A stretch of 64,000 bases of DNA from an uncultured Eubacteriales bacterium (GCA_900549485.1 UROG01000002.1:17475-81474); one strand, 5' to 3'; numbered from the stretch's first letter, positions 3,447 to 57,840 are shown. Numbers and translations are program-made. Notes: generated from the sequence alone by a model not told the origin.

Positions 3447-4301
3447 TCAGATTATCCCTTCAAAGCCGTCGCCCCACACTCTTTCCGACACTGCCGTCAG
3501 CAGCTCCTTTTCCTCTCCGCCGACAACGACCCTGTCCGCCCTGAACGCGGCCAGCATGCCCTTTGAGCCAACCGCCGTATACGGTATCAGTCTCACGCGG
3601 CCGGTAAGCTCCGGCATTTTCGCGGCGGTCTCCGCAAAAGCCACGGCGTCGTCAAACGGAAGGCTCCCGCTCTCCGGAAAAAGCCCGCTGACCGCATGCG
3701 GACAGGCCACCATCACCCGCTCGCCGGATATGGGGTCCCGAAGCTCGTTGCCGGTATCGTGCATCGCCCTGAATTTCACGCGTTTTCCGCCAAGCTCTAT
3801 TTCCACGTCGGCAAAGCTTCTTTCACACCGCGCCGCCCGGTATCTGAAAACAAGCGTCAGCAGCGCATAGCAAAGCGCAAAGGACAGTATGAGCGTTCGC
3901 ATATCAAAGGCGGGACGCCGTCCGGTAAGCGTTATGCAGTAGACAAAGCCGCCGAACGCCGCCGCCACCGCAAGAAAAGCAAGCGAGCAGCGCAGCAGGG
4001 ATTTTTCGCCGCCGTAAGCCGCAAGCGCCATGAACAGGGCGGCGGCGACCTTTATCACCGGCGAGGACAGAAATTCAAGCCCCGGTATGTACACCGCCGC
4101 GGAATACGCCGCCCCGATGAGCGCCCCGGCAAAGTACCTCAGCCTTTTCACCGTTAGCCCGCACACCGCCGCGGTACAGCTCAGCAGCAGGTAATCTATC
4201 GCAAGGTTCAGGAGGAACAAGCTGTCCACATAGATGATTTCCATGGATGCATTATATGCCGGCGCACGGCGTGAAATTTGTCGGTATCGAACCTCCTTCA
4301 T
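3447..4301 (-). CDS. spoIIGA: sigma-E processing peptidase SpoIIGA
   Basis: Polytopic membrane N-terminus (MEIIYVDSLFLLNLAIDYLLL) plus aspartic protease region (MHDTGNELRDPISG), in the conserved spoIIGA-sigE arrangement. The start is ambiguous: ATG at 4301 or at 4244 (MEIIY...). Confidence 0.75.
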   Translation of the reverse strand: MKEVRYRQISRRAPAYNASMEIIYVDSLFLLNLAIDYLLLSCTAAVCGLTVKRLRYFAGALIGAAYSAAVYIPGLEFLSSPVIKVAAALFMALAAYGGEKSLLRCSLAFLAVAAAFGGFVYCITLTGRRPAFDMRTLILSFALCYALLTLVFRYRAARCERSFADVEIELGGKRVKFRAMHDTGNELRDPISGERVMVACPHAVSGLFPESGSLPFDDAVAFAETAAKMPELTGRVRLIPYTAVGSKGMLAAFRADRVVVGGEEKELLTAVSERVWGDGFEGII

Positions 4302-4375: not shown

Positions 4376-5287
4376 ATGTGGTTCATTTTTTCGATAATCG
4401 CGCTTTTATGCTGGAGCGGCTCCGATCTTTTTTCCAAAATCGGCTGCCGGGACAGTGAGGATAAATACAGTCATCTGAAAATGGTCATGGCGGTCGGCGC
4501 CGTTATGGGTCTTCACGCACTGTATCAGATAATTTTCGGCGGCGTTGAGATAAACGGCGGAATAATCCTTACATATCTGCCCGTTTCCATACTCTACATT
4601 CTCTCAATGACGATAGGCTATGTGGGGCTTCGTTATATCGAGCTTTCCATATCCTCTCCTATATGCAACAGCTCCGGCGCGATCGTCGCCGTGCTGAGCC
4701 TTATAACGATGGGCGCCGCCGCAGAGCTTCCCGCCGCGGCATATGCTGCCGTCGCGGCGGTGTGTCTGGGCGTACTGTTCCTCGGCATCACCGAATCGAC
4801 CGAGGATGAGGAGCTTCGCGCCGCACGTCAGGACGCCTCGAATCACCGCTATGCCAAAAGCTGGCTTGCGCTGGCGCTGCCTGTGGTCTACTGTCTGCTG
4901 GACGCGCTTGGCACCTTTGCCGACAGCATCGTGCTTGAAAAGCTCAACGAGGACAGCGCGAACGCCGCCTATGAGCTGACGTTTCTTGCGGTAGGCATCG
5001 TGTGCGCAATATACGTACTCGGCATAAAGAAGCAGAAGCTTGCCGTGCGGCAGGAGGTGCCGAAGTACACCGGCGCGATCTTTGAGACCGTCGGTCAGTT
5101 CTTCTATATCTATGCCCTCGCCGACAGCCGCCATGTGGCATTTGCCGCGCCTATCATCTCCTCCTACTGCGTGGTGAGCGTACTGTGGAGCAGGCTCTTC
5201 CTCAAGGAAAAGCTTTCCCTGAAGCACTATCTGTCCATCCTGCTTGTGATTATCGGCGTTGTTATTCTGGGTATACTCGACATATAA
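4376..5287 (+). CDS. EamA/DMT-family transporter
   Basis: 303 aa, about 10 TM segments, two EamA-like halves. RBS AGGAGAG upstream of the ATG. Confidence 0.75.
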   Translation: MWFIFSIIALLCWSGSDLFSKIGCRDSEDKYSHLKMVMAVGAVMGLHALYQIIFGGVEINGGIILTYLPVSILYILSMTIGYVGLRYIELSISSPICNSSGAIVAVLSLITMGAAAELPAAAYAAVAAVCLGVLFLGITESTEDEELRAARQDASNHRYAKSWLALALPVVYCLLDALGTFADSIVLEKLNEDSANAAYELTFLAVGIVCAIYVLGIKKQKLAVRQEVPKYTGAIFETVGQFFYIYALADSRHVAFAAPIISSYCVVSVLWSRLFLKEKLSLKHYLSILLVIIGVVILGILDI

Positions 5288-5368
5288 GCGTCTTTCTGCC
5301 CGTGAATGCAGCGTTTCGATTATTCCCCGCGTTTTTTCCGATCTATACATTGAAAAAGGAGCGAGAAA

Positions 5369-6076
5369 ATGGCTAAATACAGCAGAGTTCTTATAAAAAT
5401 AAGCGGTGAGGCGCTTGCCGCCGACAAGCACACCGGCTATGACTTCGACTTTGTGACAAGAGTCTGCGGCGCGGTAAAGAGCTGCGTTGACGGCGGCGTT
5501 CAGGTCGGCATCGTCATAGGCGGCGGCAACTTCTGGCGCGGCGTAAAGGACGGCGCGGGACATATCGAGCGCGTCAGCGCCGACCGCATGGGTATGCTGG
5601 CAACAGCCATGAACTGCCTTGCGGTGTGCGACGTTTTCACCCAGACGGGCGTGAAGGCAAAGGTAATGACTGCCGTTGACATTCAGGGCGTCGGCGAGCG
5701 CTACGACACGAAAAAGGCCATAGAGTATATGGAAAACGGCACAGTCGTTCTCTTCGGGTGCGGCACCGGCATGCCCTTCTTCTCGACAGATACCGCCGCC
5801 GCGCTGAGAGCCGTGGAAGTACGTGCGGATGCGCTGCTGCTTGCAAAGAATATAGACGGCGTTTATTCCGCCGACCCCAGAAAGGATGCTTCCGCCGTCA
5901 AATTCGACGAGATAAGCTATGATGAAGTCCTTGCCCGCCGTTTGCAGGTCATGGACACCACCGCGACGAGCCTTGCAATGGACAACGCGCTGCCCGTCAT
6001 CGTCTTCGCCCTTGCCGAGCCGGAGAACATAGGCAGAGTCGTCGCCGGTGAGAAGGTCGGCACGACAGTCAGCTGA
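5369..6076 (+). CDS. pyrH: UMP kinase
   Basis: Classic PyrH sequence (LIKISGEAL, GIVIGGGNFWRG, VVLFGCGTG), in the pyrH-frr-uppS neighbourhood. Confidence 0.92.
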   Translation: MAKYSRVLIKISGEALAADKHTGYDFDFVTRVCGAVKSCVDGGVQVGIVIGGGNFWRGVKDGAGHIERVSADRMGMLATAMNCLAVCDVFTQTGVKAKVMTAVDIQGVGERYDTKKAIEYMENGTVVLFGCGTGMPFFSTDTAAALRAVEVRADALLLAKNIDGVYSADPRKDASAVKFDEISYDEVLARRLQVMDTTATSLAMDNALPVIVFALAEPENIGRVVAGEKVGTTVS

Positions 6077-6777: not shown

Positions 6778-7509
6778 ATGCCAGAAACAGCAAAGCCGTG
6801 GGACAGCGCACGTCTGCCCCGGCATATTGCAATAATTCTCGACGGGAACGGCCGCTGGGCAAAGAAACGCGGTCTGCCCAGAACCGCCGGTCATGCCGTG
6901 GGCGCGGAAAATTTCCGCAAAATAGCGACCTACTGCAAGAATATCGGCATTGATTATCTGACGGTCTACGCTTTTTCCACCGAAAACTGGAAGCGTCCTC
7001 CCGAAGAGGTCAAAACCATAATGAAGCTTCTGGACAAATATCTTCATGAGGCTATCGACACGATGGAGCGCGATCACATAAAAATGAGGGTTCTTGGCGA
7101 CGTGTCCGGCCTTTCGCCTGAGCTTCAGTCACTTGTGCACAAAACCGACGTAATTTCCACTCATTATGACGGTTTTCAGGCAAATATATGTCTCAACTAC
7201 GGCGGCAGAGACGAAATCGTCCATGCCGCAAGGCGCTACGCCGAGGATCTTGCCTTGGGCAGTGCGCCCCAGCTTGACGAGGAGAGCTTCGGCAATTATA
7301 TGTACTCCGCCGGTATTCCCGACCCCGATCTGCTTATAAGGCCGGGCGGGGAAAAGCGCATTTCCAATTTTCTCCTGTGGCAGTGTGCATATTCCGAGTT
7401 CTATTTCACCGATGTTCTGTGGCCTGACTTTTCCACAGACGAGCTTGACAAGGCAATTGTCGAGTATCAGAGCCGGGACAGACGTTTCGGCGGCGTAAAG
7501 GTCAAATAA
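6778..7509 (+). CDS. uppS: isoprenyl transferase (undecaprenyl diphosphate synthase)
   Basis: Motifs HIAIILDGNGRWA, YLTVYAFSTENWKRP, RISNFLLWQ. Confidence 0.9.
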   Translation: MPETAKPWDSARLPRHIAIILDGNGRWAKKRGLPRTAGHAVGAENFRKIATYCKNIGIDYLTVYAFSTENWKRPPEEVKTIMKLLDKYLHEAIDTMERDHIKMRVLGDVSGLSPELQSLVHKTDVISTHYDGFQANICLNYGGRDEIVHAARRYAEDLALGSAPQLDEESFGNYMYSAGIPDPDLLIRPGGEKRISNFLLWQCAYSEFYFTDVLWPDFSTDELDKAIVEYQSRDRRFGGVKVK

Positions 7510-15687: not shown

Positions 15688-15874
15688 AACCGTCCTCCCT
15701 CTCCTCGTTTTACTGAAATATTATCATATATCCTGCCCGATTGCAAAGGCTTTGTTGAATTTCCGTTTTCCGGCGGTTGACAAAAATATATATTGCATAT
15801 AAAATATTTATTTGCCGCTGTGCGGCGAAATACGGCGGAGCAAGGGCTCTGGCGAGATTGGAGAATTTGATTTT

Positions 15875-17311
15875 ATGGCAAAAGAGAAGAAAGTAGAGCA
15901 GATCACCGATATGGAGGTTGACTTTACCCAGTGGTTCACCGATGTCTGCACGAAGGCGGAGCTGGTGGACTATTCCGGCGTAAAGGGCCTTTTCATTCTG
16001 CGCCCCTACGGCTACGCGATCTGGGAAAACATCCAGAAGGAGCTTGACGCGATGTTCAAGAGAGACGGTCACGAGAACGTCTCCATGCCCGTCCTTATCC
16101 CCGAAAGTCTTCTGCAAAAGGAGAAGGATCATGTCAAGGGCTTCGCTCCCGAGTGTGCATGGGTCACGATGGGCGGAAGCGAGGAGCTGCCGGAGCGTCT
16201 TTGCGTGCGCCCCACCTCCGAAACCCTTTTCTGCGATCATTGGAGCCATGTCGTCCATTCATGGCGCGACCTGCCGATGCTCTACAACCAGTGGTGCAGC
16301 GTTCTGCGCTGGGAGAAGACCACGCGTCCGTTCCTGCGCGGGAGAGAATTCCTCTGGCAGGAGGGACACACCCTTCACGCCACTCCCGAGGAGGCCGTGA
16401 AGGAAACTCTTCAGCAGCTCGAGGTTTATGCAGATCTCTGCGAAAACTATCTCGCAATGCCTGTTATCCGCGGCAACAAGACCGAGAAGGAAAAATTCGC
16501 CGGCGCCGAGGACACATATACGATCGAGTGCATGATGCACGACAAGAAGGCTTTGCAGTCCGGCACCTCCCACTATTTCGGCGACGGCTTCGCAAAGCAG
16601 TTTGACATCACCTTTACAGACAAGGACAACAAGCAGAAGCATCCCTTCCAGACCTCATGGGGCATGTCAACCCGCATCATCGGCGGCATCATCATGACCC
16701 ACGGCGACAACAACGGTCTTGTCCTGCCCCCGCGTATCGCCCCCGTTCAGGTCGTTGTCGTACCCGTGGCACAGCATAAGCCCGGCGTTATCGAAATGGC
16801 GACCGAGCTTTACGAGGTTCTCAAGGCTGCCGGTATCCGCGTAAAAATCGACACCAGCGATAATTCCCTCGGCTGGAAGTGCGCGCAGTACGAAATGAAG
16901 GGCGTTCCCGTGCGCGTCGAGATAGGCCCCAAGGATATGGAAAACGGCGTATGCGTTGCGGTGCGCCGCGACAACGGCGAGAAGGTCACGATAAGAATCG
17001 ACGAGCTGGCGGAGTGCATCCCCGGCGTTCTTGACGACGTGCAGAACGGTCTTTACGCCAAGGCAAAGAAAAATCTTGACGAGCACACATACACCGCGTA
17101 CTCTCTTGAGGAAGCCAAGCAGATACAGCAGGAAAAGGGCGGCTTCATCAAGACCATGTGGTGCGGCGAGCTTCAGTGCGAGCTGGATATGAAGGAGAAA
17201 GCCGGAATGTCCTCCCGCTGCATCCCCTTTGAGCAGGAACATCTCAGCGATGTATGCGCCTGCTGCGGCAAGCCCGCCAAGCACATGATCTATTGGGGCG
17301 TCGCTTACTGA
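15875..17311 (+). CDS. proS: proline--tRNA ligase (archaeal/eukaryotic-type class II)
   Basis: About 478 aa from the ATG at 15875 ([12 protein letters not shown]...). Class II motifs and a C-terminal zinc-binding CxxC...CxxC (CACCGKPA). GGAGA RBS. Confidence 0.9.
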
Positions 17312-17354: not shown

Positions 17355-17393
17355 CATGACCCCAGACGCCGCTCTCCGGCGTCTGGGGTCATG
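17355..17393. terminator. long perfect hairpin (16-bp stem, 7-nt loop) after proS
   Basis: catgaccccagacgcc-gctctcc-ggcgtctggggtcatg. The A/T tract lies on the minus-strand side. It is followed by two further hairpins at 17422..17456 and 17471..17505. Confidence 0.6.
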
Positions 17394-17480: not shown

Positions 17481-19052
17481 TCAGTTTCTACTGAAATGCA
17501 GCTTTTTAAGTTGGTGGGGCTGTGGAGGCTCTGTATGAACACCAGAGGCAGAGCCGCTATCCCCTTTCAGAAACTCTGTGACAACACGATAATTATTGCC
17601 GTCTCCATCAGTGCCGGTGAAGTTGTACTCAATCTCTATCCGGTCATCCCATAGCCTGATGGCCTTTACCATAGTTCGGAGCAGTTCCTTGCGATAAGCT
17701 TGGTTGTCAGGCGTACCATTACGCAGCTTTTCTAAATAGAACCGCATACGTTCACCATCGACCGGCTCTTCAAACATGGCCTTTCCGAGAGCAATGCTTC
17801 TTTCAAGGTCGTGTATTTCCGTTTCCAGCTCTTGCATTCTTGCAGATGTTGTCTCATTGAATATGCCGGCTTCTATTGCTTTCATGATATTATCCAGCGC
17901 CTTTTTCCGGGATGAAAGCTCTTCCTCCATCACCGGCACATCCGATGTTTCCTGCGCTTGCTTTTTCAGCTCAATATATCCAGAAACAAGCCAGTCTGTC
18001 ACATCTGCCCGCGACAGGCAGGCGCGCGTCAGATCCACGACGAACTGCTCTATAAAATCCCTACGGACATTATGCTTTGTGCAGCCGTCATTCCCGCGGC
18101 TTTTACAGGTGTAATAGTAGTGAAGAGTTCCGTTCCGACTCGTCCCAGCATACCCGACCATGGGAGAGCCGCATTCCCCACAATATAGCTTGCCGGTAAG
18201 CAGATAATCAGAATTAGATTTGCGCTTTGCGCCCTCGCTATTTAGCCCTTCCTGAAGCTTACGTTGCACAGCGTAAAAAACCTCCTCACTTATTATCGCG
18301 GGAACACCGCCAACGACTCGTACACCAGAATGCTCATATATTCCGATGTATCTTTCGTTCCTCAGCATACGATTAAACGAGTTTTTGTTGAAAGGCTTAC
18401 GTGTTTTTGTTAGAATCCCTCTGTCGTTGAGACTGCGAATAATATCAGCATAGGGAACATCATCCACAACTTTGGAAAAGATCTCCCGCACTATTGCGGC
18501 GCGCGGCTCGTCAATGGCATATTTGCCATCCTCGCCTTTTTTATAACCATACGGGAGAGAACCGTTCACCTTGCACTCGGCGGCATTGTCTTTCAGCCCT
18601 CGCCTGATATCCTCGGCCATGTTCTCAGAATAAAACTGATTGACGTTCATCATTGTTCGCAAAGCAAAGCGGCCTGCCGCTGTGTTCCCAAACTCTTCTT
18701 TGGCATAGAGCGTTTTTATGCCAAAGCTATCGAGCCGGGATTCATATTGCAATGCATTCAGCATATTACGGGAAATTCGGTTAGACTTATAGGCAATCAC
18801 AACATCGAACTTGCGTTTTTCAGCATCGCGCATAAGCCGCTGAAACTCATTGCGCCGGTCAGTACGGCCAGAAATGGCTTTGTCTGCGTATATGCCAACA
18901 ACAGAAATGCCGGTGGTCACGGCAAAGGCTGTGCATTCCTCTATCTGCTGTTCTATACTTTCTTCTTTTTGGCTGTGAGAAGAATACCGCGCGTATATTA
19001 CACCGGTGATTATCAAATTGTCTGACTTCTTTTTATACTTCTGCGAAGCCAT
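17481..19052 (-). CDS. large serine recombinase (phage integrase)
   Basis: Resolvase-type N-terminal catalytic domain (VIYARYSSHSQ...RISR), recombinase domain, zinc-ribbon (CGECGSPM...C) and coiled-coil. AGGAGG RBS before the ATG at 19050-19052. The stop codon lies inside a hairpin. Confidence 0.85.
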   Translation of the reverse strand: MASQKYKKKSDNLIITGVIYARYSSHSQKEESIEQQIEECTAFAVTTGISVVGIYADKAISGRTDRRNEFQRLMRDAEKRKFDVVIAYKSNRISRNMLNALQYESRLDSFGIKTLYAKEEFGNTAAGRFALRTMMNVNQFYSENMAEDIRRGLKDNAAECKVNGSLPYGYKKGEDGKYAIDEPRAAIVREIFSKVVDDVPYADIIRSLNDRGILTKTRKPFNKNSFNRMLRNERYIGIYEHSGVRVVGGVPAIISEEVFYAVQRKLQEGLNSEGAKRKSNSDYLLTGKLYCGECGSPMVGYAGTSRNGTLHYYYTCKSRGNDGCTKHNVRRDFIEQFVVDLTRACLSRADVTDWLVSGYIELKKQAQETSDVPVMEEELSSRKKALDNIMKAIEAGIFNETTSARMQELETEIHDLERSIALGKAMFEEPVDGERMRFYLEKLRNGTPDNQAYRKELLRTMVKAIRLWDDRIEIEYNFTGTDGDGNNYRVVTEFLKGDSGSASGVHTEPPQPHQLKKLHFSRN

Positions 19053-19065
19053 ATAGCCTCCTTGC

Positions 19066-19686
19066 TCAGATGCCGAGCAACTGCTTCTTTTTGGCTGTAA
19101 ATTCTTCTTCGGTAAGCACACCTTCATCAACGAGCTGCTTGAGGGCGCGCAAATCATTTATTGTTGGAACCGCTATATCGGGCTGGCAAGCCGGAGCGGG
19201 ATTACTGTTCCAGTTGGCAACCTGCTTTTCGTAGATTCCTGCGAGTTCTGCGTATTCAGGCTTGTAGACTGCGGTCATTTCACTGCCGAACCCCACACCA
19301 AAGCCACCAATATCAACGAAAGAATCGCTCCCTTTCTTGAGCTTGATGGTTATCATTCCGTTTGACATGAACGAAGGTTTTTTGTTTGAGAAAGATGCGA
19401 TGCTTTGAATAGGTATAGTCGTGTTCTTTTTCTTTTCGATAAAAATCAAACTGCTGCTTGTCAACTTTAGTGCTTTCGGCGTAATGCAGGGAAGCTCGGG
19501 CAAATCTCCGGACGGGATTTTACTCGTGTGCGTGGCATATGCCCCCGCACTTTCTCCACGCGAAACACGTACAGCTTCCTCGCCAACGTAAATATGATCT
19601 GCCGCTCTTGCACACGCTTGACATAGTCCTTGCTTGGATATTTCTGCGGCCGAAATTCTTTTGCCGCACTTCTCACATATAGGCAT
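19066..19686 (-). CDS. zinc-ribbon / PH-like (DUF4429-like) / SHOCT-domain protein
   Basis: N-terminal CxxC...CxxC, central beta-rich region, C-terminal SHOCT-like LTEEEFTAKKKQLLGI. Located between the integrase and the repressor. Confidence 0.45.
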   Translation of the reverse strand: MPICEKCGKRISAAEISKQGLCQACARAADHIYVGEEAVRVSRGESAGAYATHTSKIPSGDLPELPCITPKALKLTSSSLIFIEKKKNTTIPIQSIASFSNKKPSFMSNGMITIKLKKGSDSFVDIGGFGVGFGSEMTAVYKPEYAELAGIYEKQVANWNSNPAPACQPDIAVPTINDLRALKQLVDEGVLTEEEFTAKKKQLLGI

Positions 19687-48122: not shown

Positions 48123-51100
48123 ATGGCAACCAGAACAATTTCCACCCGCGTTGCGGTAGAGGGTGAAAGTCAGTACCGTGCCGCGATAACCGGGATAAAC
48201 GCTGAACTTCGCAATATGCAATCTGCTCTCAAAATGACAGAGAGCCAGTATAAAAATAATGCGACTTCAACAGAGGCGCTTACGGCCAAGGGCAAGGCAC
48301 TCAACGACTTGCTCGTAAGCCAGAAAAGCAAAGTATCCGCGCTTGAAGCTGGATTAAAAAATGCGCAAGAGGCTGAGCGCCAGTATGCCCAGCGAAAAGC
48401 GGAACTCAGTAAAAAGATAGAGGATAATGTCAAGGCCCTTGATGAACTGAAAAAGAAGTCTGGGGATACAAGCGCTGAAGAGAAAAAGCTGACCGAGGAG
48501 AATGAACGGCTCAACGCAGAACTCAGGAAGAATGAGGATTACCTAACTGCCGCAAAAAAGGCCGTTAACAACTGGCAGACAGATTTGAATAAGGCCAGGA
48601 CTGCCGTAAACGAGACCGAAGACGCCATACGTCAGAATTCGGCGGCGCTGGATAACAACAAGAGCAAAGTGCAGGGAAACACCGATGCTATCAACGGGCT
48701 TGCCCAGGCGTTGGCCGCATCGGGGTTGAAGCAATCCATACGTGAAATAGTGGAGGCATTGACGGAGTGTGTCGATGCCTCCGTTGAATTTGAGTCGGCA
48801 ATGGCCGGCGTCGCAAAAACAACGGACCTCACCGACAAAGAATTATCCACAATGGGAGGTCAGATAAAAGAGCTCTCAACTGATATTCCGATAACCGCAA
48901 AAGAACTGGCGGGCATAGTCGAGACCGCTGGACAGCTCGGCATAGAAAAAGAGAATCTTGTGTCATTTGCAACCGTCATGGCAGATCTCGGAGTTGCAAC
49001 AAATCTCACATCAGAGGAAGCAGCAACAATGCTTGCCAGATTTGCGAATGTGACAGGGATGGCACCGGAGCTGTATGAGAATCTGGGTTCTGTTATCGTA
49101 GATTTGGGAAACTCGTTTGCAACAACCGAATCCGAAATCGTAAATATGGGTCAGCGTCTCGCTGCTGCGGGTAAGCTGGCAGGGCTGACAGAGCCTGAAA
49201 TAATGGCTCTCGCAACAGCGATGTCCTCTGTTGGCATAGAAGCCGAGGCGGGCGGTACAGCAATGACGCAGACATTGACTGCGATTGAAAAAGCCGTGGC
49301 CGAGGGCGGCGATAGCCTTGCAAAGTTCGCGGATGTTTCCGGAATGTCGGCGGAGCAATTCGCCGCAGTGTGGCAGAATGAACCCATTACTGCAATTCAG
49401 GCGTTTATAGAGGGCCTTGGAAAGCTTGACGAAAAAGGCGAAAGCGCAACACTCGTGCTTGACGAGATGGGGCTTTCCGGCATTCGTCAGAGTAATATGC
49501 TGAAATCTCTTGCCACGGCATCAGGGCTGCTTTCCAATGCGGTAGACACGGCCAATACTGCATGGGCTGAGAACACCGCACTGATGAAAGAAGCATCCAC
49601 TCGATATGCGACCACAGAAAGCAAAATCACGATGTTTGAAAACAGCGTGAATAATCTCAAAATTGCCATAGGCGACCAGCTCACGCCCGCGATTGCTGAC
49701 CTTGCAACCAAGGGTACGGATATCGTCAAGTGGGCAACAGATTTCGTTCAAGCCAATGACTGGCTCGTTCCAACGATAACCGCTCTCACGGCAGGACTAA
49801 CTTCTTTCACTACAGTTTTAGCTTCATATATGGCAATTACTAAAGTGGTTATTCCTATCATAAAAGCATTCAATGCCGTCCTTATGGGGAATCCAGCGCT
49901 TGCGGTCGCCACGGCGGTAATCACGCTTGTATCGGCTATTGCAGCACTCGCGGCAGCTACACCGTCCGCTACAAAAGAGGCTGACGCTCTGAATGACACT
50001 CTTGACGATTGCAATAAAGCGTTTGAAGATGCGCGTAAGAATTTCACCGAAACCTCAGAAGAAATCGAAGCGACATCTATCGTAATCGCTAAACACATAG
50101 ACCGGCTCGACGAACTCAATTCAAAAACTGCGCTTACTAAAGAAGAGCAGGCCGAGTATAATTCCATAGTCAGCAGACTGCGTGAGCTGCTGCCAGATGT
50201 CAATATACAGATGGATGAGACTACTGGCAGACTGCAAACGACGACTGAGGAGCTGAGGCTTGGAGCTCAGGCGTGGAAAGAATATGCTCAAGAACAGGCT
50301 TTCGCTACAATAATTTCCGAACAGGAAGCCGCACTTACAGAGTTGCAGGTTGCACTCGCGAAAGCTCGCATAGAACTCACGAAATACAATGAATCTGCAA
50401 CTCAAGGCACATTAGATTTCGTCGCGGCTGCCAATGAGCAGAAAGCTGCACAGCAGGCATTGTCTGAAGCTCTTATAGAATCTAAAGGCAAGGAAACTGA
50501 GGCTGTTATTGCTGCCCGTGATGCTGAGGCTGACGCTTCTATGAAAGTAAGTGAGCTTTGGGCAAATCTCTCTGAGGAGGAAGCCAAAGCCGCTGAAGCA
50601 ATGCTCGCTTTGCAGGATAGTATTGCTGAAACAAGCGCAAAGGTCGATGAGCAGGCAAATATTCTGACTGAAACTCAGGCCATGGTAGACTCTTACAAGG
50701 AGAGTTTGACCGGTGCTGCGGAAACCTCGCAGCAGATGGCCGAGAGCATAAGCGATGCCAATGAGACGCTGAGCACGTTAGGCGATGGCGCTGGGGAGAG
50801 TATTGCGCAGGTGCCTGAGGCAACAGCTACGGCAATGGCTGAGACGAAAGCGCAGGTTGACAGCGCAAAACCTGAAATCACGGCAACGGTTACAGATATG
50901 GGCTTGCAGGCTGCTACTGGATATCAGGAGCAGCTTTCTAATATGGTTGATACGACCACACAGGTATTGTCGGATGTCAATCAGACTGTATCAGGCTATG
51001 CAAGCAGCGCATATAACGCCGGGTATGGCATAGGTGCTGCAATTTCTCAGGGAGCAGCGGTCGGCGTCAGAGCTTACGCCGCTCAGGTAGCAGCTGAAGC

Positions 51101-51518
51101 GGCGGCAATGGTGCGCAATGCTATCGCTGCCGCAAAGCAAGCTGCACAGTCAAATTCTCCGTCGAAAAAGACAATAGCCCTCGGCAATGACCTTGGCAAA
51201 GGCCTTATTATCGGTATTCGAGAGATGGAAGATGCGGTAGCTGAAGAGATGCGTGACACTATGAAAAAAATCGTGGATGTGCAGATTGAAGTACCGGAGA
51301 TCCCGGACAACACAACAGCGATACTCAAGGCCATAGGGAGTGTTCCCTCCACAGACGATAGACTTCTTGCTGAAATAGACAAGCTGGCGAATGCAAAAAA
51401 TCGTCAAATCAACATGAATCTGACGCAAAACATCTATGCGGATGACACCAGCTATGCTGGGCAACAGCGAGAGGCAAAGCGCAATTTGAGACAGATAGCA
51501 AGGGAGCTGAACAGATGA
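48123..51518 (+). CDS. tail tape measure protein
   Basis: 1131 aa, extensive coiled coil, TP901-type TMP core (GVAKTTDLTDKELSTMGGQIKELS...). Confidence 0.88.
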   Translation: MATRTISTRVAVEGESQYRAAITGINAELRNMQSALKMTESQYKNNATSTEALTAKGKALNDLLVSQKSKVSALEAGLKNAQEAERQYAQRKAELSKKIEDNVKALDELKKKSGDTSAEEKKLTEENERLNAELRKNEDYLTAAKKAVNNWQTDLNKARTAVNETEDAIRQNSAALDNNKSKVQGNTDAINGLAQALAASGLKQSIREIVEALTECVDASVEFESAMAGVAKTTDLTDKELSTMGGQIKELSTDIPITAKELAGIVETAGQLGIEKENLVSFATVMADLGVATNLTSEEAATMLARFANVTGMAPELYENLGSVIVDLGNSFATTESEIVNMGQRLAAAGKLAGLTEPEIMALATAMSSVGIEAEAGGTAMTQTLTAIEKAVAEGGDSLAKFADVSGMSAEQFAAVWQNEPITAIQAFIEGLGKLDEKGESATLVLDEMGLSGIRQSNMLKSLATASGLLSNAVDTANTAWAENTALMKEASTRYATTESKITMFENSVNNLKIAIGDQLTPAIADLATKGTDIVKWATDFVQANDWLVPTITALTAGLTSFTTVLASYMAITKVVIPIIKAFNAVLMGNPALAVATAVITLVSAIAALAAATPSATKEADALNDTLDDCNKAFEDARKNFTETSEEIEATSIVIAKHIDRLDELNSKTALTKEEQAEYNSIVSRLRELLPDVNIQMDETTGRLQTTTEELRLGAQAWKEYAQEQAFATIISEQEAALTELQVALAKARIELTKYNESATQGTLDFVAAANEQKAAQQALSEALIESKGKETEAVIAARDAEADASMKVSELWANLSEEEAKAAEAMLALQDSIAETSAKVDEQANILTETQAMVDSYKESLTGAAETSQQMAESISDANETLSTLGDGAGESIAQVPEATATAMAETKAQVDSAKPEITATVTDMGLQAATGYQEQLSNMVDTTTQVLSDVNQTVSGYASSAYNAGYGIGAAISQGAAVGVRAYAAQVAAEAAAMVRNAIAAAKQAAQSNSPSKKTIALGNDLGKGLIIGIREMEDAVAEEMRDTMKKIVDVQIEVPEIPDNTTAILKAIGSVPSTDDRLLAEIDKLANAKNRQINMNLTQNIYADDTSYAGQQREAKRNLRQIARELNR

Positions 51519-52429
51519 GGAGCAAATACATTGAAAAGCTTACATTTACCAACGAAAATGGCTCAACGATAGAGTTTTCCGTTAATTCTGTTTTCCATTG
51601 CAATATCTCAAAAGATGTATCCGGGCTGTCCGATGTCGAGAACGAGATATATTCCACATCAGGCATAAATCAGGCCGGGGCCACATATCTGGGGTATCAT
51701 ATTGCAAGTCGTGACATTGAAATAGTCGGACACATAAATGAGCTTGATAAAGCCATCGTGCGTGAATACCGGCACCAGCTCAATCATGCGCTGAACCCTA
51801 CATATTCTGCTGTTCTGGTGTATCAGCATGACAGCTTTACGCGGCAGATAAAGTGCAAGGTCAATTCTGCGCCACACTTTGACGCAGATGGCATTTTCCT
51901 GCGATTCACCATCAATCTATTATGTCTGAATCCATTCTGGACGGACGAAGCTGAAACGTATACGCAGATTGCGACGTGGATAGGCGGCATGATATTTGAC
52001 AGTGTGGACGGACTGCAACTGACCAACAGCGAGGATGACCCTCAATGGGAGGTGGGATATCGCCTCCCAAATCTTATCACCAATATTGAGAACACTGGCG
52101 ATGCTACTACGGGACTGACAATAACCTTTGCCGCACAGGGAGCCGTTTCAAATCCCGGTCTGATTGATGTCAAGACGCAAGAATATATTCAGGTAAATAT
52201 GGATATGCTCGCCGGCGAGGAGATAACGATTAAAACGGGATATGGCGAGAAGTCGGTCACGTTCAAGAATCAGCGCGGCGAAGAAAGCGATATTTTTCGT
52301 TATCTGGACATTCAGTCAACGTATTTGCAGCTTGCCATTGGCGACAATCCCTATCGTTACTACGCTGCGTCAGGTGAGGACAATCTCAATGTGACGATCA
52401 AACACAGCAATCTGTATCTGGGGGTGTAG
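51515..52429 (+). CDS. distal tail protein (Dit)
   Basis: 304 aa directly after the TMP (siphovirus tail family). Confidence 0.7.
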   Translation: MRSKYIEKLTFTNENGSTIEFSVNSVFHCNISKDVSGLSDVENEIYSTSGINQAGATYLGYHIASRDIEIVGHINELDKAIVREYRHQLNHALNPTYSAVLVYQHDSFTRQIKCKVNSAPHFDADGIFLRFTINLLCLNPFWTDEAETYTQIATWIGGMIFDSVDGLQLTNSEDDPQWEVGYRLPNLITNIENTGDATTGLTITFAAQGAVSNPGLIDVKTQEYIQVNMDMLAGEEITIKTGYGEKSVTFKNQRGEESDIFRYLDIQSTYLQLAIGDNPYRYYAASGEDNLNVTIKHSNLYLGV

Positions 52430-53559
52430 TGATGGAGCTGTATATCTATGATGCGGAGATGAATATGCTCGGCATTGTTGAGCAGATAACGAGCCTTATA
52501 TGGACACGCAGATATTGGGATTGCGGTGAGTTCAAGCTTCTTGTACCATTTAATGATGCGCACAACCGTCTGCTGCAAGACGGGAATATCGCAATCAAGC
52601 ACGGTGACGATGAAGCGGCGGAAATTCTCTATACAAATATCAGCAAAAATCTTGAGGGCTATGAGGTTATTGAAGTACAGGGTAAATTTCTGCTGAATTG
52701 GATTTCTCGGCGCGTCATTGCAACGCCGTTCGTCAACGTTTCAGCTACGGCGCAAGTGCTTATCCGCCGCATGGTTAATGAAAACTGCATAGATACTACG
52801 CCGGAGCGAAAACTCCCGGCGTTTTCTTTGCATGAAGACGCGGTTATAAGCGGGAAGAGCATTCCCTACAATTCAGAACCTTATGCCAATGTTCAGGATG
52901 CAGCTGTGGAGTTGGCCGAAGGGTCAAAGTTAGGGATGAAGGTCATCACCGACCGTGCTGCCGGCACGCACCAGTTCTCAGTGTATAAGGGCGTTGATTG
53001 CACAGCGGACAACACCGCAGGTAATCCACCGTGTATCTTTTCTCAAGAGTACGATAATGTGCTGGAGCAGGAATATACGAAGTCTACTGAAAAGCACAAA
53101 ACCACGGCATATGTTACCGGCGAAGAGACCGAAGATAAGTCTCCTGTGCTCGTCATTGTGAACGGCGAGAATTCTGGCCTTGCCAGAAAAGAGCTATATG
53201 TATCAGCTGGGGATATCAAGCAGACATACAAAGACGACAATGACAAGGAGATCACGCTGACTGATGCCGAGTACGAATCGGCTTTGGCCGCACGCGGCGG
53301 AGAAAAGCTGGAGCAGTATCCGATATCTCAGGCATTTTCGTCTGAAATAAACGTTGGGGCAAACCTCATTTATCGGAAGGACTTTGACCTCGGCGATAGA
53401 GTGACGTGCGTGAATAAGACGTGGAACGTGCGCATTGACGCAAGGATTACAGAAATCTCAGAAATATACGAGGTTGACGGTGAGGGCTTAGAGATCACTT
53501 TCGGAGAGTCAATTCCGAGCATCTATAAACAAATAAAATCTATGGCAACAGGAGGTTAA
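52429..53559 (+). CDS. tail-associated protein (Tal-like)
   Basis: 376 aa after Dit. Confidence 0.55.
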   Translation: MMELYIYDAEMNMLGIVEQITSLIWTRRYWDCGEFKLLVPFNDAHNRLLQDGNIAIKHGDDEAAEILYTNISKNLEGYEVIEVQGKFLLNWISRRVIATPFVNVSATAQVLIRRMVNENCIDTTPERKLPAFSLHEDAVISGKSIPYNSEPYANVQDAAVELAEGSKLGMKVITDRAAGTHQFSVYKGVDCTADNTAGNPPCIFSQEYDNVLEQEYTKSTEKHKTTAYVTGEETEDKSPVLVIVNGENSGLARKELYVSAGDIKQTYKDDNDKEITLTDAEYESALAARGGEKLEQYPISQAFSSEINVGANLIYRKDFDLGDRVTCVNKTWNVRIDARITEISEIYEVDGEGLEITFGESIPSIYKQIKSMATGG

Positions 53560-53561
53560 TC

Positions 53562-54914
53562 ATGGCGGAAAGAGGTAGCTTTTTCAACTCCGTGTCAGGC
53601 GACCGCAAATACTCCGCTGAGGACTGGGCGGCATACTTTGCATCGTTTGTGTCCAATGGGGTGTATGCAAATCCGAGCAATGGATTGCAGGTAGTTATTG
53701 CAACTGGCATGGGCATAACGATTAAAGCTGGAGCAGGTTTTATCAACGGATATTTTTACCGCAACACCACGGACCTTGGCAAAACGCTCTCTGTCGCGGA
53801 TGGCGTTTACAACCGAATAGATAGAATCGTTCTTCGGTGGAGCTTGCTCAACCGAAAGTTGTCTGTTGAGGTGCTGGAGGGCGTGCCTGCAACGACGCCG
53901 ACCGCAACGGCTCTTACGAGAGACGCAGAAATATATGAAATCGCACTTGCGGATGTTTACATCGGCAGAGGTGTAACCGCCATTTTGCAGTCTAATATTA
54001 CTGACCGCAGATTCGACAGTAGCCTTTGCGGAATTGTCACCGGCATAATAGACCAGTTCGATTTTTCATCTCTCTGCACTCAGTTTGACGCGTTCTTTGC
54101 CGAATATAAGGTACGCATTGCGAACGAATACGACTATTTTCAGTCGCTTGGTCAGGCTCGATATGACTCGTTCGACCAAGCTATGGATACATTCGAGGCT
54201 TCTGCACAGAGCAATTTCAACGACTGGTTTGCAAACCTTCAGTATGTTCTCGACGGCGATGTTGCCGGACACCTGCAAAATGAGATAGACGCAATGGAGG
54301 CTGTTGTCAACACAGCAGTTGCCGAGCTTGAACAGTCTATGCAGGAAACCATTGAAGAAGTGCGCCTTACTGGCTTCTCAACATATACTCACGCAAAGGA
54401 AGGTACGGTACACTCTCTTACACTGGCAGGCGGTGGGAGCAATGTGAAATTCGTTGCAACGGCCGCATACGCGAAAAACGACACATTCAAGGTGAACGGC
54501 GGTTCTGTGACGGTGCGGCTGCCGAACGGCAAAGCTCCCGGAAACAATTTCTTCGTGACTGGGGCTGTTGTTATCGGCTTCCTGTCTGGTACCGATTTCT
54601 TCTTGGTCGGCGGTGGAGGCGGCGGGTCCGGTGAACAGTATCTTGCAACTCTCACGGTGGCGAATTGGTATCAGCAAACGCCAGACACATCGGAAGAGTT
54701 CTGGTATGCCTACGACATCGCACCAAGCGACTTTGACAGTAATGAGCAAGATGTAGTTGTGTCTGCTGCCAACGCTGATACATACGACTGGTTTGCGAAG
54801 AACGCCTTTTATGAACTTGCCATAAAGAATACTGGATTTTCAATACAGGCAAAAGAGAAACCGACAAAGTCATTGCAGATATTCTATGAATTAAAAGCAA
54901 GGGGTGAAAGCTGA
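53562..54914 (+). CDS. tail fibre / receptor-binding region protein
   Basis: 450 aa. Glycine-rich stretch LVGGGGGGSG. Confidence 0.45.
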   Translation: MAERGSFFNSVSGDRKYSAEDWAAYFASFVSNGVYANPSNGLQVVIATGMGITIKAGAGFINGYFYRNTTDLGKTLSVADGVYNRIDRIVLRWSLLNRKLSVEVLEGVPATTPTATALTRDAEIYEIALADVYIGRGVTAILQSNITDRRFDSSLCGIVTGIIDQFDFSSLCTQFDAFFAEYKVRIANEYDYFQSLGQARYDSFDQAMDTFEASAQSNFNDWFANLQYVLDGDVAGHLQNEIDAMEAVVNTAVAELEQSMQETIEEVRLTGFSTYTHAKEGTVHSLTLAGGGSNVKFVATAAYAKNDTFKVNGGSVTVRLPNGKAPGNNFFVTGAVVIGFLSGTDFFLVGGGGGGSGEQYLATLTVANWYQQTPDTSEEFWYAYDIAPSDFDSNEQDVVVSAANADTYDWFAKNAFYELAIKNTGFSIQAKEKPTKSLQIFYELKARGES

Positions 54915-56035
54915 TGAGCGGAATTCTTTTAGGCGCACGTCCTGAAATACAAAAACCGAAAACAGCGAGATCTTACGGCGTGCTGTGGTCAGGTGGACCG
55001 AGCACGCAGTTTTCTCGTTTGGGTGACGCGGTAGGGTTTACTGACCCTGTGCCGGGTGTCGGAGCAACGGTCGGCTCATCGCCGTTTGATGATATCTGGC
55101 CGTGGAGCGGCATGAAAGAATTCAACGTTATCAACGATGCAATCGCCTATGAAAAGGGCGTAGATTCTGCATTCAGCCGTTCTGCATTTGATACCGTGGT
55201 AAGGGTGCCGAAATTCTGGTATAAGATTGCGGCAACAGGGGCAGAGTGGCAGTTGCATATTGCAAACGGCCCTATGACCGGGTACACGCTGCATCCCGCT
55301 TTTGAGGGAAAGGATGCTATCTACGTCGGCAAGTATCTTGCGGGCAATAGCTATGTATCGAAATCGGCAGTAAAACCGGTCGTGAGCATCACACGAGCTA
55401 CGTTACGAAGCAATGCCAGAAACAAGGGCGCACATTGGGATATGATGAACATTGCTGCATGGTCGGCAGTGGTTATGTTATATCTCGTGGAATATGCGGA
55501 TTGGGACTCTCAGGCCGTTGTTGGTAAGGGCTATACAAGCGGTTCAGCCGCTATAAGCTGCGGCGGAACTGATAGCATGGCATACCACACAGGCCGCCCG
55601 GCAGGAACGGACGGGCAAACATCTATCCAGTACCGCGGTATTGAAGACCTCTGGGGCAATGTCTGGCAGTGGATCGACGGTATCAATTTTAGCGGAACAC
55701 AGGCTTATTATTGTCTCGACCGTTCTAATTTCGGCGATGACAAATCCGCTGGATACTCGCAGTTGAGCTATGCCTGTTGCAGCGGCAATGGAGATTATCC
55801 AAAGACACAGGGCATTGATGCAAATGCGCCGTGGCTTTTCTTGCCCACCTCGACAGGCGGCAGCAATGCAACATATATCCCGGATGGATGGTGGACATCC
55901 TCCGGATGGAGGGTCTTCAAAGTTGGCGGTCGATATGACAATGGTCTTGCCGCTGGCTTGCTTGCGCGGGCTGCGGGCAGTGCTTCGTCGGACGCGTACG
56001 CGAGCAATGGCGGCCGGCTCCTTTATATCCCCTGA
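54914..56035 (+). CDS. DGR target protein (tail fibre with C-terminal variable region, probable C-type-lectin-like fold)
   Basis: The C-terminal 36 codons (VR, 55912..56019) match the downstream TR except at adenines. Confidence 0.8.
   Translation: MSGILLGARPEIQKPKTARSYGVLWSGGPSTQFSRLGDAVGFTDPVPGVGATVGSSPFDDIWPWSGMKEFNVINDAIAYEKGVDSAFSRSAFDTVVRVPKFWYKIAATGAEWQLHIANGPMTGYTLHPAFEGKDAIYVGKYLAGNSYVSKSAVKPVVSITRATLRSNARNKGAHWDMMNIAAWSAVVMLYLVEYADWDSQAVVGKGYTSGSAAISCGGTDSMAYHTGRPAGTDGQTSIQYRGIEDLWGNVWQWIDGINFSGTQAYYCLDRSNFGDDKSAGYSQLSYACCSGNGDYPKTQGIDANAPWLFLPTSTGGSNATYIPDGWWTSSGWRVFKVGGRYDNGLAAGLLARAAGSASSDAYASNGGRLLYIP
55912..56019 (+). repeat. DGR variable repeat (VR)
   Basis: 108 nt, identical to TR at all 100 non-adenine positions. 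8 substitutions, all at TR adenines. Confidence 0.85.
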
Positions 56036-56042
56036 TAGGGGT

Positions 56043-56062
56043 CTGGGGGCCGCAGCCCCCAG
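56043..56062 (+). promoter_or_regulatory. GC-rich hairpin downstream of VR (DGR target-recognition hairpin / IMH region)
   Basis: ctgggggc-cgca-gcccccag (8-bp stem, 4-nt loop) 7 nt after the stop codon. A second hairpin gtcggcgtagccgac plus T5 follows. Confidence 0.6.
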
Positions 56063-56221
56063 GTATTATGTCGGCGTAGCCGACCGATTTTTATAAAATT
56101 GTCTTACGCATTTCGTAATTATGTATCGGAAATAGTAATAATAAAACGAAATGCTGACAGAACAGAATTCGCTTTTTATTATTCTCTGGGGCTGCGTGTG
56201 TTAGTTCTCCCCATTGTTTCT

Positions 56222-56329
56222 GGTCTTCAAAGTTGGCGGTAGATATGACAATGGTCTTGCCGCTGGCTTGCTTGCGCGGACTGCGAACAATGCTTCGTCG
56301 AACGCGAACGCGAACAATGGCGGCCGGCT
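56222..56329 (+). repeat. DGR template repeat (TR)
   Basis: 22 adenines, AAC/AAT-rich in the VR codon frame (..AAC AAT ... AAC GCG AAC GCG AAC AAT..). Confidence 0.85.
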
Positions 56330-56459
56330 GCTTGTTTCAGACCTCTGCTCCATTGCACACGCACGCTCCATGCCGCTTGGCAAAAATATTGCCGCAAGGA
56401 CAGGGCTTAGTAGGTTTCTCTCGAAAGGCCTTGAGGCAAACAAGGAGGGCATTTCTCAA

Positions 56460-57581
56460 ATGCCTAAGAGAGTCGGATTCCTATATGAAAAGATGTGCAA
56501 CAAGGATTTGATCCGCATTGCCATCATCAACAGCTCACGTCACAAAAGACACAGGCATGATGTCCAGAAAGTAATTCGCAACATGGACAAGTATGTTGAT
56601 AAAACATACGACCTTCTCCTTGCTGAAGCTTTCAGACCATCAATGCCGAAAAAGAAAATACGATATGACACAGCAAGCCGCAAGGAACGGGAAATCAGTG
56701 TTGTACCGTACTGGCCGGATGGGGTTATTCATCAGCTCATGGTTCTTGTGCTCAAAGACACACTCATGAAAGGTATGTATGCATGGACCTGTGCGGCCAT
56801 CCCCGGACGTGGAGGCTCACGAGCCGAGAAGTATGTGCAGCGTTCTATAAGGCAGGATGTCAAAGGAACGAAATATATTTTGAAGCTCGACATCAAGAAG
56901 TTTTACCCAAGCATAAACCACGCGAAAGTTATGGCTGCTCTTTCACGAAAAGTGAAAGATAAACGATTTCTCGGCATGGTCTCAGCCATCCTTGATACCA
57001 GTGACGCCGGACTGCCGATAGGCTTTTATATCTGCCAGTGGCTTGCAAACTTTTATCTTGAGCCGCTGGATAGATATATCTGTTCTCTCGACGGGTGCAA
57101 TCATTACGTCAGGTACATGGATGATATTGTTGTTATGGGCAGGAACAAGAAGAAGCTCCATAAAATCCGCAAACTTATAGATGCGTATTTGCGTGAAGAA
57201 ATGCTGCTGACTGTAAAAGACAATTGGCAGGTGTTTCCGCTCAAGTCAAGGCCGCTGGATTTCGTTGGGGTGAAACAGTATAGGAAATATCGCACAATAC
57301 GCAAAAGAACATTTCTTCGGTTTATCCGACAGTGCCGACGCGCAATCAAACGCAAGGCCAAAGGATGGGGCATACCGCCGAGAATGGCATCGGCTCTTAT
57401 TTCAAGAGCGGGGCTGCTCAAAGGCGTTAATTGCTATAAGGCAAGGCAAAAATACTACACTCCAATTGGAGAAAAACTATTAAAGGATGTGATACGGAAT
57501 GAAAGTAAGAGGCGGAACAAAGCCAGTTACAGCATTCACTTTGGAGGCAATCCCCAAAAAGCTGGGCAAGTCTATGGTTAG
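56460..57581 (+). CDS. DGR reverse transcriptase
   Basis: RT motifs LKLDIKKFYPSI, GLPIGFYICQWLANFYL (DGR-type ..Q motif 4), YVRYMDDIVVMG (YxDD). N-terminus MPKRVGFLYEKMC like other DGR RTs. AAGGAGGG RBS. The upstream in-frame ORF (from 56214) runs through TR. Confidence 0.85.
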   Translation: MPKRVGFLYEKMCNKDLIRIAIINSSRHKRHRHDVQKVIRNMDKYVDKTYDLLLAEAFRPSMPKKKIRYDTASRKEREISVVPYWPDGVIHQLMVLVLKDTLMKGMYAWTCAAIPGRGGSRAEKYVQRSIRQDVKGTKYILKLDIKKFYPSINHAKVMAALSRKVKDKRFLGMVSAILDTSDAGLPIGFYICQWLANFYLEPLDRYICSLDGCNHYVRYMDDIVVMGRNKKKLHKIRKLIDAYLREEMLLTVKDNWQVFPLKSRPLDFVGVKQYRKYRTIRKRTFLRFIRQCRRAIKRKAKGWGIPPRMASALISRAGLLKGVNCYKARQKYYTPIGEKLLKDVIRNESKRRNKASYSIHFGGNPQKAGQVYG

Positions 57582-57840
57582 ATTCTTCCAGAACATCAAG
57601 GCATTTTCTGAGGAGAAAGACGGCGTCAAAACTGTCGGCTGGGAGTGGGATGAATATCATCTTGAGATGAATTCATACGGAGGCCTCGCCGAGGACGTCG
57701 CCGCCAACCTCGCGCAGCTTTTGGCTCAGGCGAAAGCAATCGAGGATGAGAAGAATATCATCCCCGACCTTCAGTCAAGCCAGTCTCAAATGCGCTCGGA
57801 TATTGAGTATCTTTCTATGATGACGGAGGTGGATCTGTAA
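57499..57840 (+). CDS. hypothetical protein
   Basis: 113 aa acidic ORF overlapping the RT 3' end. The start is uncertain. Confidence 0.3.
   Translation: MKVRGGTKPVTAFTLEAIPKKLGKSMVRFFQNIKAFSEEKDGVKTVGWEWDEYHLEMNSYGGLAEDVAANLAQLLAQAKAIEDEKNIIPDLQSSQSQMRSDIEYLSMMTEVDL

Follow-up and report, generated by a model that had tools for sequence, protein, structure and literature searches.

How a DGR marks its target and copies its template when the cassette encodes no accessory protein Avd is the question raised by the intergenic segment shown above. In BPP-1, a hairpin at the target is required for retrohoming, and both the sequence and the size of its GRNA loop are critical (Guo et al. 2011, PMC3240598); Avd is essential in the same phage (PMC12875486, PMC5758913). 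Combined analysis of the window, i.e. the whole 64,000-nucleotide stretch of DNA from which the segment is taken, and of related loci led us to regard the segment as very likely the intergenic control region of an active prophage DGR that operates without Avd and has a target-TR-RT layout (probably Architecture A1), where TR is the template repeat and RT the reverse transcriptase.

Anatomy and activity of the cassette

The cassette is located in the tail module of a siphovirus-type prophage, and its elements and the preceding tail genes are as follows.

48123-51518: ORF of 1131 aa, taken as the tape measure from its position and size only
51515-52429: Dit
52429-53559: Tal
53562-54914: 450-aa structural protein
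54914..56035, + strand: DGR target gene, an ORF for a tail/receptor-binding protein of 373 aa with the variable repeat at its 3' end (PHROG 5302 'tail protein', 4.7e-67), in the tail module after the tape-measure ORF, Dit and Tal; stop codon TGA at 56033-56035
55912..56023, + strand: variable repeat (VR), a 112-nt ungapped match to TR
56009..56042, + strand: IMH-like segment, a G/C-only block (56009-56018) then 24 nt unlike the TR flank, in which the stop codon and a conserved G-run (56038-56041) are found
56222..56333, + strand: template repeat (TR), the ungapped match to VR, with 22 adenines in 112 nt
56460..57581, + strand: DGR reverse transcriptase (RT), 373 aa, pI 10.2 (RVT_1, 2.9e-14; PHROG 1423, 1.2e-94)
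57499..57840, + strand: acidic 113-aa protein of a tail-assembly-chaperone-related family, pI 4.86, overlapping the RT 3' end by 83 nt

Downstream of the target, the RT and the 113-aa ORF are followed by an XkdX-family gene, an endolysin and a holin. The RT adjacent to TR is related to DGR RTs, and among solved structures its best match is PDB 8ub7, a reverse transcriptase of 328 aa (E = 3.8e-22), which we take to be the BPP-1 bRT. The closest genome record to the RT is a Butyricicoccaceae MAG (99% RT identity), with an Oscillospiraceae MAG at 81%, and the host would be a gut Clostridia bacterium of the family Butyricicoccaceae. The RT frame reaches 83 nt into the next gene (57499-57581) and RT relatives cease aligning around residue 350-365, so that its C-terminal ~25 residues appear to result from incidental read-through upon insertion of the TR-RT block.

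VR and TR differ at nine positions in the 112-nt BLAST match, of which eight fall at TR adenines and the ninth, at 56020, lies in the IMH-like 3' end; TR has no other match in the window. The 3' ends of both repeats share GGCGGCCGGC, a GC-rich block that comes first and is followed by divergence, as in an IMH/IMH* pair. The first-pass annotation had proposed such a pair from the divergent flanks, and this is borne out, with divergence starting after GGCGGCCGGCT.

Evidence of recent activity was provided by a sister phage contig, L001, which matches the window at 98.35% identity across 9.4 kb and carries an identical TR. Comparison of its VR (5453-5564) with that of the window (55912-56023) revealed 15 differing sites, 14 of which are at TR adenines. 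An identical TR combined with adenine-specific VR differences points to very recent diversification of a cassette that has no Avd, and the cassette appears to be active, as judged from these sequence comparisons. Many adenine-specific VR/TR differences were also found in the other relatives, a set of 80 RT-related loci from IMG/VR and 80 from genomes in which TR/VR pairs were located by script and of which nearly all 160 have a TR/VR pair of their own. A decaying relic, in which avd has been lost and diversification has ended, would be a natural thought given that Avd is essential in BPP-1 (PMC12875486, PMC5758913). With an intact RT ORF, the adenine-specific turnover between the sister phages and the many similar differences across relatives, however, this reading can scarcely be credited.

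A GC-rich stem-loop follows VR but not TR

Two hairpins are found immediately downstream of the target gene.

56043..56062, + strand: target-site stem-loop CTGGGGGC-CGCA-GCCCCCAG, 7 nt 3' of the stop codon, with eight perfect pairs (seven G:C) and a 4-nt loop
56070..56092, + strand: terminator-like hairpin GTCGGC-GTA-GCCGAC, then CGA and T5 (stem-loop 56070-56084, T5 56088-56092), from a terminator scan

Direct reading and folding of the sequence confirmed the perfect 8-bp GC stem and 4-nt loop that the first-pass annotation had placed 7 nt past the stop. Indeed, folding of 56020-56110 gave both hairpins as DNA (z = -4.6; none of 200 shuffles was equally stable) as well as in the minimum-energy fold as RNA (z = -2.8). 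Perfect hairpins of at least 8 bp with at least six GC pairs occur six times in the 64-kb window compared to a mean of 1.45 in Markov shuffles, and hence an 8-bp GC hairpin by itself is not impossible by chance. The extended motif GGGG-N1-6-GGGGG-N4-12-CCCCC, which includes the preceding G-run, occurs once, with an expectation of 0. The stem starts 19 nt past the BLAST end of VR homology, in keeping with a GC-rich inverted repeat of 7-10 bp situated 4-34 bp downstream of VR, and no hairpin follows the TR of the window.

The similarity to the BPP-1 element is close in geometry. In BPP-1 (NC_005357), the hairpin gCGGGGCC-GAAA-GGCCCCGc follows the mtd stop and starts 25 nt past the GC14 block; the window hairpin starts 24 nt past its GC block, and both have an 8-bp stem and a 4-nt loop, as the first reading had recognised. 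Both are GC-rich, lie just past the stop codon of a tail-fibre target, are absent from TR and have stems that are free to covary (PMC3240598). Three differences were noted. The 4-nt window loop, CGCA, does not match the GRNA sense-strand consensus and the loops of relatives range from 3 to 6 nt; the present motif has an invariant G5:C5 core and a conserved preceding G-run; and no avd lies between target and TR.

Among the relatives, the motif takes the form of G4-6, 3-4 nt, a stem whose G5:C5 core is invariant apart from one G:T variant, and a loop of 3-6 nt, such as GGTCA (often), CACC, CTTTTA and others. It was found after 43 VRs (28/68 IMG/VR loci and 15/74 genome loci), 16-26 nt past the end of TR/VR homology, and after none of the 142 TRs examined. 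The G-run of 4-6 nt, 3-4 nt ahead of the stem, is kept in 23 distinct related sequences. Stem pairs were counted by a script anchored on the G5/C5 core, because MAFFT aligned the hairpins poorly and loop lengths vary. The inner pair is C:G in nine sequences, A:T in ten and T:A in three, and the outer pair is T:A in nine and C:G in seven, so that both covary. Two compensatory changes from C:G to T:A likewise separate the window stem from that of L002, a relative with 79% RT identity. The carriers are Bacillota-type prophages, and the motif was not found in Bacteroidota or crAss-like relatives (~35% RT identity); this distribution agrees with the report that GC-rich inverted repeats occur in only 34% of DGRs (PMC5758913). 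The idea that the hairpin belongs to the DGR therefore holds up in homologous cassettes, in which it is kept at its position with covarying pairs and is missing after TR.

The hairpin at 56043-56062 is thus probably functional, as judged from its conservation. Its location 7 nt past the stop of the last tail gene and its ability to fold as RNA would also suit a mere mRNA 3'-end element of the tail operon, a terminator or stabilising stem-loop with no role in DGR targeting, and a terminator role for such repeats was considered by Wu et al. (PMC5758913). We regard this as unlikely. No T-tract follows the hairpin here, and in most relatives the sequence on its 3' side is A-rich rather than T-rich, which argues against a canonical terminator; moreover, a separate terminator-like hairpin with T5 is present 8 nt downstream. 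The motif travels with the DGR, since homologous tail-fibre genes without an adjacent RT have no hairpin, spacer or TR, and termination would leave the conserved upstream G-run unexplained. A function at the DNA target, as in BPP-1, is the reading that we prefer.

Two further records came up in this comparison. The 'Tentaclin' paper was considered as a hairpin precedent and set aside, as its hairpins are protein beta-hairpins and irrelevant here. The record of locus L089 (CAVEPP010000001.1), whose RT is 95% identical and whose hairpin is the same, bears the label Alloprevotella sp.; the nearest relatives are Clostridia, and the label is probably a binning error in that MAG.

The spacer before TR carries conserved signals

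Beyond the second hairpin, two elements were recognised in the spacer between target and TR.

56104..56118, + strand: palindrome TTACG-CATTT-CGTAA (TTACG-N5-CGTAA), by direct reading, in a block conserved with L002
56154..56182, + strand: sigma-70-like promoter, CTGACA-17 nt-TATTAT, a 10/12 consensus match, putatively for the TR-RT transcript

The GC content of the spacer is 33% (56086-56215) or 37% (56063-56215), compared to 51% for the whole window. Its sole ORF starts with TTG and is 47 aa in length, and the relatives preserve no reading frame across the interval from VR to RT. The earlier description of an AT-rich, non-coding spacer is consistent with these values, and the second hairpin with its T5 tract, which the same description included, was recovered at 56070-56092 by both sequence reading and the terminator scan. 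What it overlooked were the other elements within the spacer and a structured RNA between TR and RT (see below).

The second hairpin has a 6-bp stem with five GC pairs, a 3-nt loop and T5 3 nt past the stem, the sequence pattern of an intrinsic terminator; L002 retains the stem with an altered loop and a T6 tract. At the aligned promoter position, L002 has CAGACA-17-TAAAAT, though the sequence between the hexamers differs. Both elements are consensus matches, from which promoter and terminator activity may be predicted. The spacer is accordingly not inert: besides a terminator-like hairpin, a conserved promoter lies in it, and the DGR RNA has its 5' arm there. The palindrome at 56104-56118, which precedes the -35 box by ~40 nt in AT-rich sequence, might serve to bind a protein.

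Two longer frames were considered as hidden genes and rejected. A basic 92-aa ORF (56233-56511) overlaps TR and the spacer behind it, and a second frame, of 455 aa (56214-57581), is uninterrupted from TR to the RT by way of the spacer; L002 and the more distant relatives preserve neither of them. Since TR-to-RT continuity is lost in L002, the latter is probably open by chance.

A TR-bracketing duplex and an RT-18 RNA in the DGR transcript

The predicted transcript contains three further elements around TR.

56187..56201, + strand: 5' arm of a TR-bracketing duplex, in which TGCGTGTGT (56193-56201) is complementary to GCACACGCA (56355-56363)
56355..56370, + strand: 3' arm of the duplex, pairing with the leader 5' of TR
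56371..56447, + strand: RT-18 structured RNA (Rfam RF03021) between TR and RT, running up to and including the ribosome-binding site of the RT

The 3' nonamer starts 21 nt past TR, and in the minimum-free-energy fold the pairing of the two complementary 9-mers (56193-56201 and 56355-56363) is extended to ~15 bp. Unrelated sequences pair at the same two positions in relatives, for instance TGTGGTGCGC with GCGCACCACA in L004 and AGGCGTTAAACAC with GTGTTTAACGCCT in L008. Perfect duplexes of at least 8 bp were obtained for 7/20 pairs of arms from the same locus compared to 20/380 pairs from different loci, with mean lengths of 7.05 bp and 5.41 bp, respectively. At the window locus itself the significance is modest (p about 0.07), and the folding energy of the whole DGR RNA is no better than that of shuffles (z = -0.16).

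The arrangement resembles the 'cPRT Stop' duplex of BPP-1, which likewise brackets TR; in the present group the pairing is kept at its position while the sequences differ across relatives. As in a published survey, which covers DGRs with Avd only, the leader just 5' of TR pairs over ~9-15 bp with sequence 15-24 nt 3' of TR, and the pairing covaries across relatives. Unlike the Avd-bearing DGRs in that survey, the present cassette has the duplex without Avd, and no Avd-binding stem-loop was identified in it.

The segment 56371-56447 matches all 84 positions (1-84) of the RF03021 model with 76.6 bits (gathering score 41.3; E = 3e-14). As a positive control, the BPP-1 spacer matches RF03022 (Phage_DGR) at 104.7 bits. 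RT-18 was present in 12 of the 13 hairpin-bearing relatives tested; of nine relatives without the motif, five have RT-17, one has a weak RT-18 match (44.4 bits) and three have no match to an RT-family RNA. The motifs RT-1 to RT-19 were found near RT genes and some were speculated to belong to DGRs (Weinberg et al. 2017, PMC5737381). RT-18 was assigned no function in that paper and, as here, is described directly upstream of an RT gene (PMC5737381). In the window it fills the TR-RT spacer, which is the position of the RT-10/Phage_DGR RNA (RF03022) in BPP-1.

No Avd is encoded in the cassette

No small basic Avd-like ORF had been noticed between target and TR or beside the RT, and homology searches gave the same result. 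Among the Pfam matches listed, which extend down to E = 0.0099, no match to PF22296 or PF05635 at E <= 0.01 was found for the 178 window ORFs of 80-230 aa. A phmmer search with BPP-1 Avd gave no match among 6441 ORFs of at least 50 aa from the 80 loci and the window. Avd proteins diverge fast, which makes this test a weak one, and the Pfam scans were added for that reason. The Pfam Avd families also had no match in 62 plus-strand ORFs around ten RT-18-class relatives. A conserved Avd homologue is therefore found neither in the window, among the matches listed, nor around the ten related cassettes. The VR-to-TR gap is shorter than 330 nt in 64/68 IMG/VR loci and 53/74 genome loci. The large gaps of four IMG/VR loci (L061, L067, L068 and L079) were considered as possible carriers of avd, but all four hold a second target gene instead. 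Given the poor conservation of Avd proteins, a partner that is very divergent or not homologous is still conceivable.

Such cassettes have been described before. Architecture A accounts for 29% of DGRs and has no avd, and one whole RT lineage is without it (Wu et al. 2018, PMC5758913). Architecture A1 of the same study is defined by the lack of avd, HRDC, MSL and CH1, and it is assigned here provisionally, from the absence of avd and of any HRDC or MutS-like Pfam match near the cassette. Supply of Avd in trans, by the host chromosome or another prophage, would be compatible with a window of only 64 kb and with the fact that some DGRs act on remote targets. It is nonetheless very improbable: the profile search of genomes with avd-less DGRs by Wu et al. 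(PMC5758913) found no avd elsewhere, the whole RT clade lacks Avd across many phages and hosts, and a phage-borne system relying on a host gene would be fragile.

The only nearby small ORF, 57499-57840, is not Avd. It is acidic, as previously noted, with a pI of 4.86 compared to 9.55 for BPP-1 Avd. Its AlphaFold (AF2) model (pLDDT 82) shows a four-stranded beta sheet followed by a long helix, and no four-helix bundle. The hhalign probability against Avd was 0.35%, for a profile built from close BPP-1 Avd relatives only (at least 64% identity) and thus too narrow to serve as a general Avd profile. The profile and structure checks proposed in the first-pass annotation therefore both speak against an Avd. 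Foldseek of the model against the PDB gave nothing significant, and the ORF has no Pfam match, Phage_tail_APC (PF16778) included. In L004, L012, L013 and L016, the same place behind the RT is taken by longer ORFs that do carry Phage_tail_APC (PF16778) at 45-72 bits (cut-off 26.6); of these four, L004 alone could be linked directly to the window ORF by sequence (phmmer E = 1.1e-4, N-terminal region).

This ORF could alternatively be an accessory factor that replaces Avd, perhaps akin to the acidic CH1 candidates of Wu et al., small proteins reported solely in avd-less DGRs (PMC5758913). In a family-pattern search of IMG/VR, an RT lay just upstream of the ORF relatives, adjoining or overlapping them, in 56/56 loci with enough upstream sequence, a figure that is biased toward DGR-linked sequences because the patterns were built on them; the same arrangement extends to RT relatives of down to 34% identity. 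In 11 loci (MT835573.1 and ten IMG/VR contigs, L247-L256), however, a relative of the ORF directly follows a tail-fibre gene 45-48% identical to the window target, and hairpin, spacer, TR and RT are absent, across the whole 30-kb MT835573.1 and within 4 kb for the others. Together with the chaperone domain of the long variants, the XkdX and lysis genes that follow the ORF, which is a typical tail-module position, and the lack of Avd similarity in profile or predicted fold, this makes an accessory role improbable. The ORF is most likely a neighbouring phage gene that lies outside the DGR. In the simplest view it is associated with the tail-fibre gene, from which insertion of the TR-RT block has separated it.

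Proposed model and relation to known DGRs

It is proposed that the G-run and the 8-bp G5:C5 stem-loop mark VR, and not TR, as the recipient of mutagenised cDNA, the role of the hairpin/cruciform in BPP-1. The terminator-like hairpin at 56070-56092 would end transcription of the tail operon, and the AT-rich promoter would start the DGR RNA near 56189 with a short leader, the first ~15 nt of which would pair with sequence just 3' of TR. Such a promoter and leader arrangement implies a DGR RNA composed of leader, TR, 3' arm, RT-18 structured domain and RT ORF. The RT would bind this RNA directly and copy TR with adenine-specific errors, presumably from an RNA primer, and the resulting cDNA would replace VR. 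The contacts that depend on Avd in BPP-1 may be dispensable, or may have been taken over by the RNA or the RT.

The system shares with Architecture A1, and with the avd-less lineage 3 (Wu et al. 2018, PMC5758913), the target-TR-RT order on one strand without an accessory gene, a phage-borne location, a C-terminal VR, IMH and IMH* and a GC-rich inverted repeat; this comparison is one of architecture. The nearest RT relatives are in Bacillota prophages, and Bacteroidota RTs are ~35% identical. Its components are on record: the target hairpin since 2011, the RT-18 motif (Rfam) since 2017 and avd-less cassettes since 2018. Modest novelty may lie in the invariant G5:C5 core with its upstream G-run, the non-GRNA loops, the association of this hairpin type with RT-18, and the presence of a TR-bracketing duplex where Avd is lacking. 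Together they outline a minimal DGR that can be tested, and leave the category unchanged.

The cassette thus offers a clean natural case: a TR-RT block with a structured RNA is apparently all that is needed to diversify a phage receptor-binding protein in an adenine-specific manner. The G5:C5 hairpin after VR and RT-18 before the RT form a testable pair of cis-elements, which could guide the reconstitution of smaller DGRs. More speculatively, and with considerable doubt on our part, the G-run and G5:C5 stem-loop might be a lineage-specific target signal that co-evolves with the RT-18 RNA and is read by an RT-RNA particle, with no need of Avd. If true, this would be a two-component DGR of one protein and one RNA with a simple, portable DNA tag, a minimal system for the engineering of targeted hypermutation.

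Further observations in the window and related loci

The RT-less tail-fibre homologues of L247-L256 (about 3900-4000), and that of L086 (5900-5990), differ strongly from one another in the C-terminal stretch equivalent to VR. These genes may be acted on at a distance by a DGR located elsewhere on the 125-141 kb contigs, or may have served as targets in the past.

In the four Bacteroidota-type loci L061, L067, L068 and L079 (about 4840-5790 and 6930-7270), two small target genes are arranged in tandem and have a single TR in common. A conserved ORF of ~100-115 aa lies directly 3' of the RT in the same four loci and may be an accessory gene of that subgroup.

Elsewhere in the window, a perfect 17-bp inverted repeat with 12 GC pairs (17355-17393) is situated just downstream of the convergent ORFs 15812-17311 (+) and 17481-19157 (-), and is probably a bidirectional terminator.
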